Shown piece after piece: positions 20,064-22,667 of a stretch of 64,000 nt of DNA; the first letter of the stretch is position 1, and each line of letters opens with the position of its first letter. This DNA comes from Anaerolinea sp. (lineage in GTDB: Bacteria; Chloroflexota; Limnocylindria; Limnocylindrales; CSP1-4). Location of the stretch: the NCBI GenBank assembly GCA_013822395.1, contig PNKK01000011.1, positions 4,557 through 68,556 on the forward strand. Reading direction: 5' to 3'. Under the pieces are notes generated by a model. The model had not been told where the DNA came from and ran no database searches. It saw only the letters and a program-made list of their open reading frames with translations. The position numbers and the translations under genes are program-made.

Positions 20064-20423
20064 ATGGGTGAGAAGGGGTTGGAGACGGACCAGGGCGGTG
20101 TCGGATCTGCCCGGGCGCCGTTTACGAGCGGCGAGCCAGGATCTGGTACGCCGTTTACGAGCGGCGAGCCAGGATCTGGTACGCCGTTTACGAGCGGCGA
20201 GCCAGGATCTGGTACGCCGTTTACGAGCGCCGAGCCGCAAGGGTCGAGTCAGCCCTTGGGGCCGGAGTTGGGCGGCAATGACGTCCCTGCGGTGCAATCG
20301 GGGCCATCGACTTGGATGAACCCAGGGCCGCCCAATATTGAGATGAACCCGGGGCCGATTAATATTGAGAAAGGCCCGGGGCCCATTCAGGAATCGGTGA
20401 GCGCCAGCCGCCCGACCGGCTGA
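20064..20423 (+). CDS. 119-aa disordered tandem-repeat protein (unknown function)
   Basis: AGGAGG lies 6 nt upstream of the ATG. Both repeat periods (33 nt and 27 nt) are multiples of 3 and in frame. There is no signal peptide or hydrophobic core, and the protein is Gly/Pro/Ser/Glu-rich. Confidence 0.5.
   Translation: MGEKGLETDQGGVGSARAPFTSGEPGSGTPFTSGEPGSGTPFTSGEPGSGTPFTSAEPQGSSQPLGPELGGNDVPAVQSGPSTWMNPGPPNIEMNPGPINIEKGPGPIQESVSASRPTG
20117..20236 (+). repeat. 33-nt perfect tandem repeat, ~3.6 copies (PFTSGEPGSGT)
   Basis: The unit gccgtttacgagcggcgagccaggatctggtac is repeated head to tail. Confidence 0.95.
20316..20396 (+). repeat. 27-nt degenerate tandem repeat, ~3 copies (MNPGPPNIE / MNPGPINIE / KGPGPIQES)
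   Basis: Read directly from the sequence. Locally AT-richer (aatattgag). Confidence 0.85.
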
Positions 20424-20447
20424 GCCTCGTCATTTCGGGAGCCGGTC

Positions 20448-22667
20448 ATGGGTATGACCGCCCTTGCACCCCGGGCCCTCGCCGCCGCGCCGAGCGCATC
20501 GGCCGACGATGACCTGCTGGGCGACGACCCTGGCGCCGGCTTGCCCGGACCGGCCGCGATCGCCGGCATCGAGCAGGAGTACGGGGTCCGGATCGACGGC
20601 CGCGCCGTCGACTTCGCCGACCTGATCGATCGGGTCGCGCCGCGGACGGCCATCGCGCGCGTCCCGCACGACCCGCTCGCGCGCTTCCTCGCCTCCGGTG
20701 CCGTCCTCACGGCGGACAGTCCTCAGGCCGAGGTCGCGACCTCGCCCCGTCGCCTGGGTCCGGGCATCGCCGGGCGCCTGGCCGACGACGCCCTCGTCGG
20801 GCGCGAACACCTCGTGCGCCGGCTGCGCGCCATCGCGCCGAGACCCGGACGGGTCGAGCTCCGCGGCTACTCCACCCACCTGAACGCGGCCTGTCCGGGC
20901 GAGCTCGGCCGGCGGGTCGTCCATCGGTACGTCCGGACGTTCGCGCCGGCCCTCATGCTCCTGGCGGACCGCACCGGCTCCCCGGGTCTCCTCGTCCGAC
21001 CGCGCCCGGACCGCCTCGAGGCCGGGACGGACTTCCTCGAGACCCGCGACGACCTCGTCGCGGCGACACTCTTCTTCCTCGCCTCGACCATCCGCACCTG
21101 GGAGGACGAAGTGGCCGGCGAGTCACCCGTCCTGGCCCCGCTGGACGATGGTCGGGTCGTCGAGACCTGGCAGCGCCCGGGTGTGTTCGTCGACCGGGCG
21201 GCGTTCGGCGACGACCTCTATCGCCTCGGGCGTTCCGCCCGTCTCAATCTGGCGGACGGCGGCTCGGAGCGCGCCGGGGATCGGCTCGAGCGGGCGTGGG
21301 GCGCCGTCCGCTCGATCGCAGCGAGCTTCGCAACTCCCGACGAACTGGCGATCGTCGACGAGCTCGTCGGGGGGCGTCGACCCCTGCCGATCGAACGGGG
21401 AGCGCCGACCGAGCCCACGGTGCGGCGGCTGCACCGGGCGCCGCCGACCGAACCCGGCCCACATGCCCCGGTGCTCGGCCGGCTGGTCACCGGGAGGGTG
21501 ACGGCAACGCCTGCCTCCGTCACCTGGGGGTCGACGCTCCTCCGCGTTGCGCACCCGGCTCGCGACTTCTACGTCCGGATCCCGCGCGAGTCGTCCGCCG
21601 CCTTCGCCAGACGGTTCGTCAGTGGCGCCCTGGACGCGTCGATCGCGGAGGTCGCGGCCCGCCCGTCGGCCGGCCTGGTCGCCGATCCGTACGACGACCG
21701 CCCGGGCGTCTTCGATGCGGCCCCGCAGCCGTGGCCCACCGATGCCGGTCGGCGGAAGTCGTCGGCTCCCGCCCCGCCGGGCACGGCGCCGCGGCGCCCC
21801 AAACCGGAGGTTGGCCCGCCGTTGGCCATGAGCCGCATCCCCGCCCCGGTCCGCGTCCCGAGCCGTCCAGGGCCGCCGACGTCGGCCGACCGGCCCTTCC
21901 CACCGCCGTGGTGGCGTCGACCCCGGACCGGCATCGCGATCGTCACGCTGCTGCTGGTTGGGTGGATCGCGCTCGTCCGCGCAGGGTGGCCGGGCCAGCC
22001 GGCCGGGAACGACGTCCCATCGAGCTGTCCGGCCGGCGTGTCCGGCGCGGCCGGGCAGGGATGCGCGACCCCGGGCCTGTCACCGGGCCCAGAGACACCT
22101 GCCGTCGTCAGCTCTGCGAGCCCCTCGCCGAGCTGCCTGCCCGCCGTCGGCGTGGGCGGATGTCAGACGCCGACCATCGAGCCCACCGCGCTGCCGTCCT
22201 GTCCGGCCGGGGCCGCCGTGGGCACGTGCCCGTCCGGATCGCCGGAGGCATCGGCGTCGCCGGGCGGGACGCCCGGGCGATCCACTCCGTCACCCACCGG
22301 GTCGCCGTGTCTGCCCGCAATCGGCGCGTTGAGCTGCCCAACGGCGCGCCCCTCGCCGCGGCCGACACCAGCGCCCACGCCGAGTCCATCGCCATCCTGT
22401 GATCCCGCCACGGGAGCGTGCGGCGGGGCTACCCCTGCGCCGACACCTCCCCCGCCTCCTCAGCCATCACCATCCTGCGATCCCACGGGGGCGTGCGGCA
22501 CGCCTCCTCCGCCAACGCCTCCCCCGCCTCCTCAGCCATCACCATCCTGCGATCCCACGGGGGCGTGCGGCACGCCTCCTCCGCCAACGCCTCCTCCGCC
22601 ACCTCCGCCAACGCCGCCCCCGCCAACGCCATGCGTGCCCGTGGTCGGAGGGCCTCCCTGCCCCTGA
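20448..22667 (+). CDS. membrane-anchored protein: N-terminal GS/Pup-ligase-like (carboxylate-amine ligase) motifs, one TM helix, Cys-loop/Pro-rich exterior
   Basis: 739-aa ORF starting 24 nt after the repeat-protein gene. Motifs GIEQEYGV, LASGAVLTADSPQAEVATSP and GYSTHLN resemble PafA/Dop and GCS2-type ligase motifs. TM helix IAIVTLLLVGWIALV, then about 8 C-x5-12-C mini-loops separated by Pro-rich linkers. Confidence 0.8.
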   Translation: MGMTALAPRALAAAPSASADDDLLGDDPGAGLPGPAAIAGIEQEYGVRIDGRAVDFADLIDRVAPRTAIARVPHDPLARFLASGAVLTADSPQAEVATSPRRLGPGIAGRLADDALVGREHLVRRLRAIAPRPGRVELRGYSTHLNAACPGELGRRVVHRYVRTFAPALMLLADRTGSPGLLVRPRPDRLEAGTDFLETRDDLVAATLFFLASTIRTWEDEVAGESPVLAPLDDGRVVETWQRPGVFVDRAAFGDDLYRLGRSARLNLADGGSERAGDRLERAWGAVRSIAASFATPDELAIVDELVGGRRPLPIERGAPTEPTVRRLHRAPPTEPGPHAPVLGRLVTGRVTATPASVTWGSTLLRVAHPARDFYVRIPRESSAAFARRFVSGALDASIAEVAARPSAGLVADPYDDRPGVFDAAPQPWPTDAGRRKSSAPAPPGTAPRRPKPEVGPPLAMSRIPAPVRVPSRPGPPTSADRPFPPPWWRRPRTGIAIVTLLLVGWIALVRAGWPGQPAGNDVPSSCPAGVSGAAGQGCATPGLSPGPETPAVVSSASPSPSCLPAVGVGGCQTPTIEPTALPSCPAGAAVGTCPSGSPEASASPGGTPGRSTPSPTGSPCLPAIGALSCPTARPSPRPTPAPTPSPSPSCDPATGACGGATPAPTPPPPPQPSPSCDPTGACGTPPPPTPPPPPQPSPSCDPTGACGTPPPPTPPPPPPPTPPPPTPCVPVVGGPPCP
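22446..22600 (+). repeat. 72-nt perfect tandem repeat, ~2.2 copies (PPPPQPSPSCDPTGACGTPPPPTP)
   Basis: Read directly from the sequence. In frame within the 739-aa ORF. Confidence 0.9.

Follow-up and report, generated by a model that had tools for sequence, protein, structure and literature searches.

Small proteins with an N-terminal MGEKG motif, encoded beside a PafA-like enzyme, suggest a new way to link or modify proteins in bacteria

Introduction

To our knowledge, pupylation is the only bacterial protein-tagging pathway described so far that employs a ligase with the glutamine synthetase (GS) fold, and its distribution is narrow. Small disordered proteins also act on a GS-fold enzyme in cyanobacteria, where GS, a dodecamer whose substrate is free glutamate, is bound by the inactivating factors IF7 and IF17. 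An ATP-dependent ligase encoded beside hypervariable small ORFs is likewise found in the graspetides (microviridin-type), in which Glu/Asp carboxylates are joined to Lys amines (PMC8939145).

Here, we describe a locus from Anaerolinea sp. (GTDB lineage Bacteria; Chloroflexota; Limnocylindria; Limnocylindrales; CSP1-4) in which a small low-complexity protein (gene 1) is encoded immediately before a ligase-like protein (gene 2). The window, that is, the whole stretch of DNA analysed, comprises 64,000 nt of assembly GCA_013822395.1 (contig PNKK01000011.1, positions 4,557-68,556, forward strand). The pair differs from the systems mentioned above in several respects. IF7 and IF17 are not encoded as a conserved adjacent pair and do not have the MGEKG terminus reported below, whereas graspetide ligases belong to the ATP-grasp fold instead of the GS-like one, and their precursors combine long conserved leaders with short cores (PMC8939145), while only the first five residues are conserved here. 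A literature search found no description of this gene pair.

Results

Genes 1 and 2 (Table 1) are separated by 24 nt, in a genome with a GC content of 72%. They are flanked by lipoprotein genes, one before the pair (19382-19990) and two after it (22867-23541 and 23557-24270), and one copy of a 92-nt repeat heads each lipoprotein module. A two-gene unit with this spacing, placed between lipoprotein modules, had been described in a previous sequence-only reading of this DNA, and all of these elements are present. The DUF3558-like lipoprotein gene probably belongs to the same transcription unit as genes 1 and 2; the order DUF3558, small ORF, ligase was also found in the relatives L200 and L201, and no terminator-like sites were found between 19000 and 23000. 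Among the immediate neighbours of the pair in the window, there were no proteasome, Mpa or ARC-type genes.

Table 1. Coordinates in the window of the features of the gene pair and of the adjacent lipoprotein gene (fractions refer to the 97 aligned homologues)
Feature	Position	Strand	Basis or remark
DUF3558-like lipoprotein gene, immediately 5' of gene 1	19382..19990	+	Sub-threshold Pfam match
AGGAGG ribosome-binding site of gene 1	20052..20057	+	6 nt 5' of the ATG at 20064
Gene 1, small low-complexity protein (Gly/Pro/Ser-rich), 119 aa	20064..20423	+	ORF reading
N-terminal tag M-G-E-K-G-L of gene 1	20064..20081	+	Conserved feature across family loci
33-nt in-frame tandem repeat x3.7, encodes PFTSGEPGSGT	20116..20236	+	Tandem Repeats Finder, 98% identity
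27-nt in-frame tandem repeat x2-3, encodes MNPGPxNIE	20315..20387	+	Tandem Repeats Finder
Gene 2, 739 aa: predicted cytoplasmic ligase-like domain, linker, one TM helix, Pro/Cys-rich ectodomain	20448..22667	+	ORF and composition
Core domain, GS-like carboxylate-amine ligase fold, aa 38-318	20559..21401	+	AlphaFold, Foldseek
Strand-1 motif G40-I-E42-Q-E44 (GhExE)	20565..20579	+	G 95/97, E 96/97, E 96/97
Acidic hairpin D90-x4-E95	20715..20732	+	Both residues 97/97
Strand-4 motif H144-L-N146	20877..20885	+	His 97/97; position 146 Asn 35, Ser 62
Arg/Glu hairpin R184-P-R186-P-D-R189-L-E191-x3-D195	20997..21032	+	R184, P185, R186, R189, E191 97/97
C-terminal subdomain, aa 335-425, separable beta-rich module	21450..21722	+	Relatives; predicted secondary structure
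Single TM helix, aa 495-513, GIAIVTLLLVGWIALVRAG	21930..21986	+	WWRRPRT directly before
Pro/Cys-rich ectodomain with 72-nt x3 repeat at 22386-22610	21987..22664	+	Tandem Repeats Finder, composition

The product of gene 1 is rich in Gly (20%), Pro (17%) and Ser (13%), and its hydrophobicity maximum is only -0.25 (Kyte-Doolittle, 19-residue window), so it has neither a signal peptide nor a hydrophobic core. In this, as in its length, ribosome-binding site and in-frame repeats, each detail noted earlier for gene 1 was confirmed. Comparison with relatives revealed that the tandem repeats are evolutionarily labile and that the N-terminal M-G-E-K-G is the conserved part. A 92-aa orthologue is retained in L201, a relative with a 97%-identical ligase; there, the PFTSGEPGSGT repeat has another copy number, and a 25-nt indel within the 27-nt repeat region shifts the C-terminal reading frame. 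In L200 (84% identical), gene 1 is represented by two tandem paralogues, and the PFTSGEPGSGT repeat is missing from L017 and L200. Among close relatives, the first 8-22 residues of the small protein are retained and the remainder is replaced. The earlier proposal that a repeat-rich or disordered small protein is paired with the ligase was correct with regard to the pairing, but the conserved feature is the N-terminal MGEKG and not the repeats or the disorder.

The pairing was surveyed in 119 genome loci that carry the ligase-like gene (871 kb). We found 79 ORFs that begin with a start codon followed by GEKG, distributed in 71 of these loci, whereas the reversed sequence yielded 0 and each of the 11 other permutations 0-1. 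The relaxed motif M-[G/A/S]-E-K-G retrieved 91 ORFs (39-207 aa) in 80/119 loci, and a comparison set of PafA loci (327 kb) yielded 1. When at least 1.5 kb of flanking sequence was available on both sides, a tag ORF was present in 35/44 loci; no tag ORF was found in the available stretch of the other 39/119 loci, nor in 9/44 of the well-flanked ones. These results bear out, for most relatives, the expectation that a small ORF accompanies the ligase gene. The tag ORF was located less than 400 nt upstream and on the same strand in 51 cases, and some follow the ligase gene or are encoded on the complementary strand. An RBS-like purine run precedes 81 of 85 tag ORFs in the relatives, and independent gene callers annotate these ORFs. 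Some loci have two or more of them, and the pairing is found whether the ligase is soluble, TM-anchored, circularly permuted, split or of the giant RHS-fused type, with a tag ORF at 4/4 of the giant RHS-toxin-fused ligases examined.

Position 2 of the tag is always G, A or S; the search pattern itself required Glu3 and Lys4, and no tag with Gln, Asp or Asn in place of Glu3 turned up when these variants were looked for separately. The codons of the tag vary synonymously (GGC 38, GGT 31, GGA 5, GGG 5; GAG 67, GAA 18; AAG 74, AAA 11), which indicates that selection acts on the peptide. Beyond the tag, the bodies of the small proteins fall into at least 7 unrelated classes, among which are zinc ribbons and low-complexity tails of Gly and Pro, with class-specific conservation, and their C-termini are variable (A, G, S, P, R and others). 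Searches of the tag proteins against Pfam and NCBIfam gave no match. A second, internal GEKG was observed in the small proteins at L202, L203 and L206 (3/4 of the giant RHS-fused ligases) and L006; excluding L206, 3 internal copies were observed in 88 proteins against 0.39 expected by shuffling. Covariation between position 6 of the tag and residues of the ligase was confounded by phylogeny, and in a model of the tethered construct P0114, a frameshift-fused gene call, the tag was undocked and residues 1-7 had pLDDT <50. Clustering of the neighbouring ORFs of the 119 loci revealed no other widely conserved neighbour, and genes 1 and 2 are therefore taken as the unit. The same clustering found no proteasome, unfoldase, protease or Mpa/ARC genes linked to the ligase, so that a Pup-like role in degradation is without support.

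The fold of gene 2 was examined with an AlphaFold2 model of residues 1-440, built on a 97-sequence alignment (pLDDT 90.1, pTM 0.89). In a Foldseek search against the PDB, ranks 1-9 were PafA (4bjr) and Dop (7oyh, 5lrt, 7oxy, 7oxv, 4b0r, 7oy3, 9cku), with E 3.2e-9 to 7.6e-7 and probability 1.00, although the TM-scores were moderate (0.34-0.55; Dop 0.49-0.55, PafA 0.34-0.40). The next matches were the YbdK-type structures 1tt4 and 1r8g (E 1e-5 and 4e-4, probability again 1.00), whose domain size is similar. The guess of a GS-fold ligase, made from short motifs, is thus sustained by the structural comparison. In contrast, sequence searches of gene 2 against Pfam, NCBIfam, PADLOC and the PDB gave no match, not even at E<=1 for PF03136 (Pup_ligase), PF04107 (GCS2) or PF12224 (Amidoligase_2); no chain of PafA or Dop was retrieved when the family profile was run over the PDB sequences, and the hhalign probability for an alignment with 56 PafA sequences was only 11.7%. 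The resemblance to GS-fold ligases therefore holds for structure but not for sequence profiles. Membership of the PafA/Dop family was rejected, given that there is no profile match, the partner is not Pup and no proteasome, Mpa or ARC genes are linked. GCS2/YbdK and Amidoligase_2 were also rejected, since the similarity to 1tt4 and 1r8g is structural only; moreover, the substrates of YbdK are free amino acids, and no small protein is known to be dedicated to it.

The stretches GIEQEYGV, LTADSPQAEVATSP and GYSTHLN, which had drawn attention to gene 2, are present and lie on the most conserved columns of the family, and G40, E42, E44, D90, E95, H144, R184, R186, R189 and E191 are each conserved in 95-97 of 97 diverse homologues, down to ~30% identity. 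The three pairings with PafA motifs suggested at that time were recovered in the confident part of the hhalign alignment. G40-I-E42-Q-E44, on strand 38-49 of the model, is paired with GIETE of PafA (G7/E9/E11); GhExE, located on core strand 1, is diagnostic of the ligase superfamily and distinguishes ligases from guanido kinases (PMC2588565). D90 and E95, on strands 86-90 and 93-97, are paired with D57 and E63 of PafA, and their spacing equals that from D94 to E99 in Dop (PMC8599861). H144 is paired with the His of G-C-H-E-N in PafA; gene 2 conforms to the superfamily strand-4 motif [HD]x[NH], whose second half is relaxed in most of the family (Ser in 62/97).

The superfamily is further characterised by arginine fingers on strand 5 and the preceding loop, and by Ex[RK]x2D on strand 6, which is [QH]x4D in PafA (PMC2588565). 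No variation was found at R184, R186 or R189 of the 180-195 hairpin, a region where hhalign is unreliable, and conservation extends to R243, R250 and R262. As a putative strand-6 motif, the family shows E191-x3-[E/D]195 (Glu in 97/97, acidic in 94/97), one residue shorter than the published spacing and with Glu first, as in YbdK and other superfamily members outside PafA (PMC2588565). We propose that the three hairpin arginines may act as arginine fingers and that E191 would be the strand-6 metal ligand. No counterpart of His241, the sixth metal ligand of Dop, was identified in the gene 2 family. [quoted passage not shown]

The 226-aa tail of gene 2 is 33% Pro, contains 16 Cys in C-x5-11-C loops and has only 3 Lys and Arg. 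The presence of positive residues before the TM helix and their near absence after it predict an N-in, C-out topology. In the lineage of the window, the enzyme is thus predicted to sit at the inner membrane face through one TM helix, with a Pro/Cys-rich stalk outside. One helix followed by a Cys-loop/Pro-rich stalk had been noted earlier, and both were confirmed. Membrane tethering, which applies to gene 2, is not a general trait, since an anchor is present in only ~60% of the family; many other members are soluble, ~400-470 aa long and without further domains. A TM helix like that of gene 2 was detected in 128/137 long-tailed members.

The gene 2 family comprises 634 clusters at 50% identity (E<=1e-3), 260 of them with E<=1e-30. 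Its hosts are mainly Actinomycetota and Chloroflexota, together with other phyla, and its members are annotated as 'hypothetical' throughout. Cultured carriers include Knoellia locipacati NBRC 109775, Blastococcus jejuensis JCM 15614, Oryzobacter terrae and Geodermatophilus sp. In some homologues, the core domain occurs alone or circularly permuted; the C-terminal subdomain may precede the core, be encoded by a separate adjacent ORF or be absent, and a few members are fused to an RHS toxin. A search of the anti-phage defence models in PADLOC-DB yielded no match for gene 1 or gene 2 and one chance-level match for P0098 (E 0.023). Genes 1 and 2 thus apparently represent a widespread, undescribed bacterial gene pair.

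Discussion

The gene pair shares with pupylation the GS-like cradle of the enzyme, the GhExE, Asp/Glu hairpin and His motifs, and the association of the enzyme gene with a small, largely disordered partner that bears a short, invariant, Glu-containing terminal motif. However, the gene 2 family has no detectable PafA/Dop sequence-family membership, and the partner motif is an N-terminal M-G-E-K-G, while Pup is bound through a helical region and carries G-G-[Q/E] at its C-terminus. The partners are also hypervariable, there are sometimes several per locus, and no proteasome or Mpa genes are linked to them; the C-terminal subdomain of the enzyme is beta-rich, separable and permutable, and the family includes membrane-anchored (~60%) and, in a few cases, RHS-toxin-fused members.

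Judging from its sequence, gene 1 is a member of a hypervariable set of small proteins that have in common only the N-terminal handle M-G-E-K-G. In our view, genes 1 and 2 probably encode a substrate and its enzyme, a pairing of an undescribed kind in which the ligase would act through the Glu of the tag, and we assign to this reading a probability of roughly 55%; the gene 2 enzyme would most likely be an ATP-dependent carboxylate-amine ligase acting on that residue. Met1 would be cleaved by methionine aminopeptidase, as Gly, Ala or Ser at position 2 allows, and the freed G-E-K-G terminus could then enter the active-site cradle. There, the enzyme would use ATP/Mg2+ to phosphorylate the gamma-carboxylate of the tag Glu; we know of no characterised superfamily member that does not phosphorylate a glutamyl carboxylate. 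Attack of the acyl-phosphate by an amine would yield an amide or isopeptide bond, the candidates being a lysine of a target protein, the Lys of the tag itself (of that molecule or of a second one), and amines that are small or bound to the membrane. The system would thus resemble Pup with the tag at the opposite end, and the small protein would contribute its variable body as cargo. A module for protein or peptide tagging or modification had been suggested from the start; the fold and the pairing agree with it, and the chemistry is what we still infer.

Instead of being substrates, the small proteins might be regulators or inhibitors of an enzyme that ligates small molecules, with MGEKG plugging the active site as a glutamate mimic, an arrangement reminiscent of IF7 and IF17 on cyanobacterial GS; the product could be, for example, a gamma-glutamyl amide or, at the membrane, a cell-envelope precursor. 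The pairing and the Glu-bearing conserved terminus suit an active-site-directed binder equally well, many family enzymes are of the compact soluble type, and no acceptor protein or downstream machinery is linked. However, conservation in an inhibitor should reach beyond five residues, and here the bodies belong to at least 7 unrelated classes, some loci encode two or more small ORFs, and a frameshifted C-terminus is tolerated beside the 97%-identical ligase of L201. Variable bodies, multiple ORFs and a tolerated frameshift fit interchangeable cargo better than a tuned regulator, and we regard regulation as unlikely. A similarly low likelihood is given to a RiPP-like maturation, in which the enzyme would modify the tag within one small protein and conjugate nothing to other proteins, generating, for instance, an N-terminal cap or a Glu-Lys side-chain lactam in the tag or between two GEKG; the product so modified would carry out its function elsewhere. 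This would account for a handle with both Glu and Lys (although both were demanded by the search pattern) and for the internal second GEKG, which exceeds expectation; in addition, graspetide ATP-grasp ligases make Glu/Asp-Lys macrolactams from an adjacent gene (PMC8939145). On the other hand, 5-6 conserved residues at the extreme N-terminus are unlike a leader/core organisation, most small proteins have a single GEKG, the fold is GS-like and not ATP-grasp, and products of 39-207 aa are large for RiPPs.

An activity of the Dop type, in which an amidase or isopeptidase with an ATP-derived phosphate cofactor strips a group from the tag Glu or recycles a modification that another enzyme has put in place, appears very unlikely. 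The best TM-scores do come from Dop, and the D90-x4-E95 spacing is that of Dop, but a TM-score gap this small cannot tell a ligase from a hydrolase, no tag has the Gln in place of Glu that a Dop-like deamidase would use as its substrate, and no second, PafA-like partner enzyme is linked. A meaningless adjacency would be compatible with the low complexity of gene 1, with the frequency of long spurious ORFs at a GC content of 72% and with the richness of ATG-GGN-GAR-AAR-GGN in purines; gene 1 could be spurious or unrelated, or MGEKG could reflect a signal in the nucleic acid, for instance a translation-enhancing stretch of purines or an upstream ORF with a regulatory function. The motif controls (79-91 tag ORFs against 0-1) and the freedom of third codon positions effectively refute this reading; moreover, some tag ORFs follow the ligase gene or are encoded on the other strand, and the set as a whole encodes products of 39-207 aa with class-specific conserved bodies and is annotated by independent gene callers.

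A more ambitious form of the enzyme-substrate reading, which we put forward only tentatively, is a widespread 'reverse-polarity pupylation', in which a PafA/Dop-like ligase would covalently attach interchangeable small proteins through the Glu, and perhaps also the Lys, of GEKG. Candidate acceptors are target proteins, further copies of the small protein and components of the envelope; many lineages would carry out the process at the membrane, and others would have it built into Rhs polymorphic toxins.

Our results indicate that the gene 2 family is a much larger sister family to the pupylation ligases, with dedicated small-protein partners that a five-residue N-terminal handle identifies. If the enzyme ligates via the handle, it would constitute a second, independently evolved chemistry for small-protein conjugation in bacteria, provide a function for hundreds of 'hypothetical' gene pairs, and give protein engineering a potential tool, namely a short tag that can be genetically encoded and its cognate ligase. 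The predicted substrates are short peptides, and cultured carriers exist. The link with Rhs toxins and the surface-exposed stalks hint at a role in envelope biology or bacterial conflict, and the association of MGEKG proteins with a PafA-like enzyme suggests a new way to link or modify proteins chemically.

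Organization of the two-gene unit and fold of the ligase-like protein

The sequence-only reading described a two-gene unit formed by gene 1, which encodes a small low-complexity protein, and gene 2, which encodes a ligase-like protein; the 24-nt gap, the AGGAGG, the in-frame repeats, the lack of a hydrophobic segment in gene 1, and the single TM helix followed by a Pro/Cys tail in gene 2 were all confirmed (Table). The product of gene 1 is rich in Gly, Pro and Ser. In gene 2, the TM helix (aa 495-513) is preceded by WWRRPRT and followed by 226 aa with 33% Pro, 16 Cys arranged in C-x5-11-C loops, and only three Lys or Arg residues; from this layout of helix and flanking charges, an N-in, C-out topology is predicted. 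In the ectodomain, each unit of a tandem repeat encoding SPSCDPTGACGTPPPPTPPPPPQP adds one short Cys loop to the polyproline stalk. The exact sequences of both genes were absent from a collection of 15 billion proteins.

Table. Location of the features in the window and in related loci (L, loci carrying a member of the gene 2 family; for a second GEKG, the location is that of the whole tag ORF)
Feature	Location	Strand	Remarks
AGGAGG	20052-20057	+	6 nt ahead of gene 1 ATG
Gene 1	20064-20423	+	119 aa
Tandem repeat in gene 1	20116-20236		33-nt unit x3.7, 98% identity, in frame (Tandem Repeats Finder)
Tandem repeat in gene 1	20315-20387		27-nt unit x2-3, in frame (Tandem Repeats Finder)
Gene 2	20448-22667	+	739 aa; starts after 24-nt gap
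Gene 2 ectodomain repeat	22386-22610		72-nt unit x3
Gene 2 motif	G40-h-E42-x-E44		near-invariant, 97 homologues
Gene 2 motif	D90 and E95		near-invariant, 97 homologues
Gene 2 motif	H144-x-[N/S]146		near-invariant, 97 homologues
Gene 2 motif	R184-P-R186 and R189		near-invariant, 97 homologues; candidate arginine fingers
Gene 2 motif	E191-x3-[E/D]195		near-invariant, 97 homologues; candidate strand-6 motif, spacing one residue short
92-nt direct repeat	16862-16953, 19155-19246, 22770-22861		three copies, 87-95% identical
LuxR-type regulator	14019-16928	-	AAA_16 + TPR + GerE
LuxR-type regulator	L200:1-1266; L070; L084; L103; L107		
RHS/YD-shell + VWD lipoprotein	~24425-28834	+	1.7 kb downstream of gene 2
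SpoIID + SH3 protein	29311-31842	+	downstream of RHS gene
Phage_T4_gp19 match	L202:2482-2913	-	just upstream of RHS-fused ligase and tag ORF
Second GEKG	L202:3252-3440		EEGEKGLG
Second GEKG	L203:2097-2216		EEGEKGNG
Second GEKG	L206:2773-2985		ENGEKGMG
Second GEKG	L006 (oriented 3887-4103)		LPGEKGRG
Circularly permuted ligases	L004, L034, L052, L058, L081, L093, L095		C-subdomain before core
Split ligases	L024, L051, L076, L078, L117		two adjoining genes; C-subdomain on 470-530-aa protein

The assignment of gene 2 to the GS-fold ligases had been made from sequence motifs. Comparison with Pfam, including PF03136, PF04107 and PF12224, gave no match at E ≤ 1, and nothing was found in NCBIfam, PADLOC or the PDB sequence set, the latter searched with the single sequence (phmmer) and with a 97-sequence profile. 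At the level of structure the assignment proved right. The AlphaFold2 model of residues 1-440, built from an alignment of 97 homologues (pLDDT 90.1, pTM 0.89), retrieved the Pup ligase PafA and the depupylase Dop at ranks 1 to 9 of the Foldseek search against the PDB (E 3.2e-9 to 7.6e-7, probability 1.00, TM-scores 0.39-0.55), with 1tt4 and 1r8g, two carboxylate-amine ligases of the YbdK type, next in rank.

[quoted passage not shown] 2008 (PMC2588565), are located on predicted strands of the model, with candidate residues for the arginine fingers and the strand-6 motif, and are near-invariant among homologues with as little as ~30% identity. This invariance argues for an active enzyme rather than a pseudo-enzyme. 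Judged from sequence and model, the family appears to have four of the seven defining features of the superfamily and may be likened to such a ligase. Since a direct query with PafA gave only matches of ≤123 aa, 56 full-length PafA proteins were rebuilt from metagenome loci and aligned with the gene 2 family by hhalign. The overall similarity was weak (pairwise E 0.0025, probability 11.7%); the global mode produced a degenerate alignment, and the local mode was reliable for the N-terminal third only. In this confident part, G40/E42/E44 pair with G7/E9/E11 of PafA, G84/D90/E95 with G51/D57/E63, and Y-S-T-H144 with Y-G-C-H. The D90-x4-E95 spacing is that of the catalytic Asp94 and the Mg ligand Glu99 of Dop (PMC8599861).

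Size and architecture of the ligase family

An indexed search with gene 2 returned 121 matches, all of them labelled hypothetical and devoid of relevant Pfam domains, and an exhaustive search recovered 634 clusters (50% identity) at E ≤ 1e-3, 260 of them at E ≤ 1e-30. According to the record labels, the family belongs mainly to Actinomycetota (Acidimicrobiia, and Actinomycetes including the cultured Knoellia and Blastococcus) and Chloroflexota (Chloroflexia, Limnocylindria, Anaerolineae, Dehalococcoidia); the closest relatives of gene 2 are in Limnocylindrales, and several genomes carry two ligase loci. A degenerate DNA pattern spanning M170-E191 was used to fetch 119 related loci, and all 119 contained true family members.

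The N-terminal region is modular, with a core (aa 38-318) and a C-subdomain (aa 335-425) that in some relatives precedes the core (circular permutation), has an adjoining ORF of its own, or is absent. Tails of at least 60 aa are present in 137 of 224 complete members, the other 87 being soluble; 128 of these 137 have one TM helix ~50 aa past the domain, together with a Pro/Arg/Gly-rich linker and an ectodomain rich in Thr, Pro, Ala, Gly and Ser. In four giant members (~2,400-2,500 aa) the domain is fused straight to RHS polymorphic-toxin modules (DUF6531, RHS repeats, and in the database protein P0233 also PT-HINT) through a poly-Lys linker and without a TM helix.

Small proteins with a conserved N-terminus accompany the ligase genes

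In a tblastn comparison of gene 1 with the sequences upstream of the family members, the matches were confined to its first few residues. A small ORF starting with [M/V]-G-E-K-G was found directly upstream and on the same strand in 51 of 103 loci; in some of the remaining loci ORFs starting with this tag were downstream or on the opposite strand; in others they started with variants (MAEKGN, MSEKGQ, MGEK[E/Q/F]). On a strict count, that is, a start codon followed by GEKG in ORFs of 30-260 aa, there were 79 ORFs in 71 of 119 loci, while reversed sequences gave none and each of the 11 other arrangements of these four residues gave 0-1. With a relaxed motif the number rose to 91 ORFs in 80 of the 119 loci (871 kb), compared with one in 327 kb of PafA loci; the only occurrence in the 64-kb window was gene 1 itself. 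Among the 44 loci with 1.5 kb or more of flank on each side, 35 had a tag ORF; two or more were present in 11 loci. All four RHS-fused giant ligases have an MGEKG ORF immediately upstream. In L004, L034, L052 and L095, all with a permuted ligase, the tag ORF is on the opposite strand.

An RBS-like site precedes 81 of 85 tag ORFs. The codons of the tag vary freely at the third position (GGC 38, GGT 31, GGA 5, GGG 5; GAG 67, GAA 18; AAG 74, AAA 11), and therefore selection acts on the peptide; this synonymous variation rules out an RNA- or DNA-level cause of the motif. A regulatory upstream ORF or leader peptide was also ruled out, given that some tag ORFs lie past the ligase gene or on the other strand and that each class has its own conserved body. 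At position 2, Gly, Ala and Ser are the only residues seen; Glu3 and Lys4 were fixed by the search pattern, and no ORF with Gln, Asp or Asn at position 3 turned up in a search made for these variants. Past approximately residue 6, the small proteins split into at least seven unrelated classes, among them Gly/Pro low-complexity, 'LIERTTTT...RDK', 'EQGPQFW', 'DILDPLGIHKLF', 'GWRSLQDHGW', zinc-ribbon and acidic-tailed proteins. Neither gene 1 nor any of nine classes of small protein matched Pfam or NCBIfam, and PDB sequence searches and PADLOC likewise returned nothing for them.

The evolution of gene 1 was followed in close relatives. In L201, whose ligase is 97% identical, the gene 1 orthologue retains the first 22 residues, has fewer copies of both repeats, and its C-terminus is frameshifted; L200 (ligase 84% identical) carries a tandem pair of ORFs, MGEKGLETGGG... 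and VGEKGLETGGG..., whose tails are unrelated. From these changes, the tandem repeats appear to be the disposable part of gene 1 and the five-residue handle its functional part. Thus, the pairing of a small protein with the ligase stands, but the repeats that stood out in the sequence-only reading vary while the handle is conserved.

Genomic neighbourhood

In the window, L200 and L201 alike, a DUF3558 lipoprotein gene is followed by the small ORF and then by the ligase gene. No other widely conserved neighbour family was detected in the 119 loci (the two largest clusters were artefacts, antisense to the ligase gene, and the rest were present in at most eight loci), nor was any proteasome, unfoldase or protease gene linked to the module among these neighbours. 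The RHS gene and the lipoprotein genes beside the two-gene unit in the window had no matches in the 119 loci and were discarded as conserved partners.

The window neighbourhood is, overall, rich in envelope and surface proteins. A 92-nt direct repeat, which contains the palindrome TCCGTGGTTCCACGGA, lies upstream of each of three lipoprotein genes and probably serves as a common operator or promoter element at the head of each lipoprotein module; it had no Rfam match and its RNA folding was no better than that of shuffled sequences (z -0.11). The large protein encoded downstream of gene 2 has a lipoprotein signal (LVFAAC lipobox), RHS repeats, a teneurin-type YD-shell and a C-terminal VWD with a GDPH motif; its adjacency to the ligase is not conserved in the 119 loci, yet four distant family members are fused directly to RHS toxins. 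The SpoIID + SH3 protein is probably a peptidoglycan-remodelling enzyme. A large LuxR-type protein, found near the module also in four unrelated loci (L070, L084, L103 and L107), could be its regulator. At L202, the gene matching Phage_T4_gp19, which we take to be the T4 tail-tube family, may point to a contractile injection system as the means of delivery in this lineage.

Discussion

Our results describe an enzyme with the GS fold, its ligase signature intact, and a dedicated small-protein partner whose first five residues are under protein-level selection, a pairing that persists across every architecture of the enzyme. We favour, with a probability of roughly 0.55, a model in which the enzyme acts on the tag; any specific chemistry is less certain than the model as a whole. 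Because position 2 is Gly, Ala or Ser, as the methionine aminopeptidase rule demands, Met1 would be removed to leave the mature end G-E-K-G. Since the characterized members of the superfamily all act by phosphorylating a carboxylate, in most cases that at the gamma position of glutamate (PMC2588565), the conserved Glu of the tag would be the most economical candidate for activation. The amide bond would then be completed by an amine, for which the candidates are a lysine on a target, the Lys of the tag itself, and a small or membrane-bound amine.

Other explanations were considered. Intramolecular, RiPP-like cross-linking is unlikely; it is supported by the second GEKG found near the C-terminus of the tag proteins of three RHS-fused ligases and of L006 (three internal copies vs 0.39 expected by shuffling in 88 proteins, the L206 ORF not being among them), and such paired motifs may be cross-linked to each other. 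That the small proteins regulate or inhibit the enzyme seems to us similarly improbable. In an AlphaFold prediction of P0114, a frameshift-fused database protein and the single construct modelled for docking of the tag, the tag had a pLDDT below 50. Residue 6 of the small proteins is Asn in Actinomycetota and Met, Ile or Leu in Chloroflexota; it covaries with positions 83, 91-93, 188, 194 and 244 of the ligase, but this covariation tracks phylogeny and so is not independent evidence. An amidase activity like that of Dop, with which the enzyme shares fold and D90-E95 spacing, is quite doubtful, and the absence of any functional link between the two genes, set beside the 80 loci with a tag ORF, is very improbable.

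A GS-fold ligase with a small-protein partner is a known kind of system; what is new is the reversed polarity of the handle and the unrelated, hypervariable partners. Pup ends in G-G-E and has its Glu motif at the C-terminus, whereas here the handle with its Glu is placed at the opposite terminus, otherwise mirrored. The gene 2 family falls outside the PafA/Dop family as defined, since it has no profile match to it, no proteasome linkage, and a partner that is not Pup. We found no description of the gene pair in the literature searched, where the only match to 'MGEKG' was an unrelated plant paper, although Iyer et al. may already have delineated the enzyme family alone in their survey of GS-like amidoligases from 2009. 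The earlier interpretation is supported and sharpened. A large sister family of PafA/Dop-like enzymes with its own N-terminally tagged small proteins would be unexpected to a specialist, and the hypothesis that the enzyme acts on the tag is directly testable with peptides and cultured strains.
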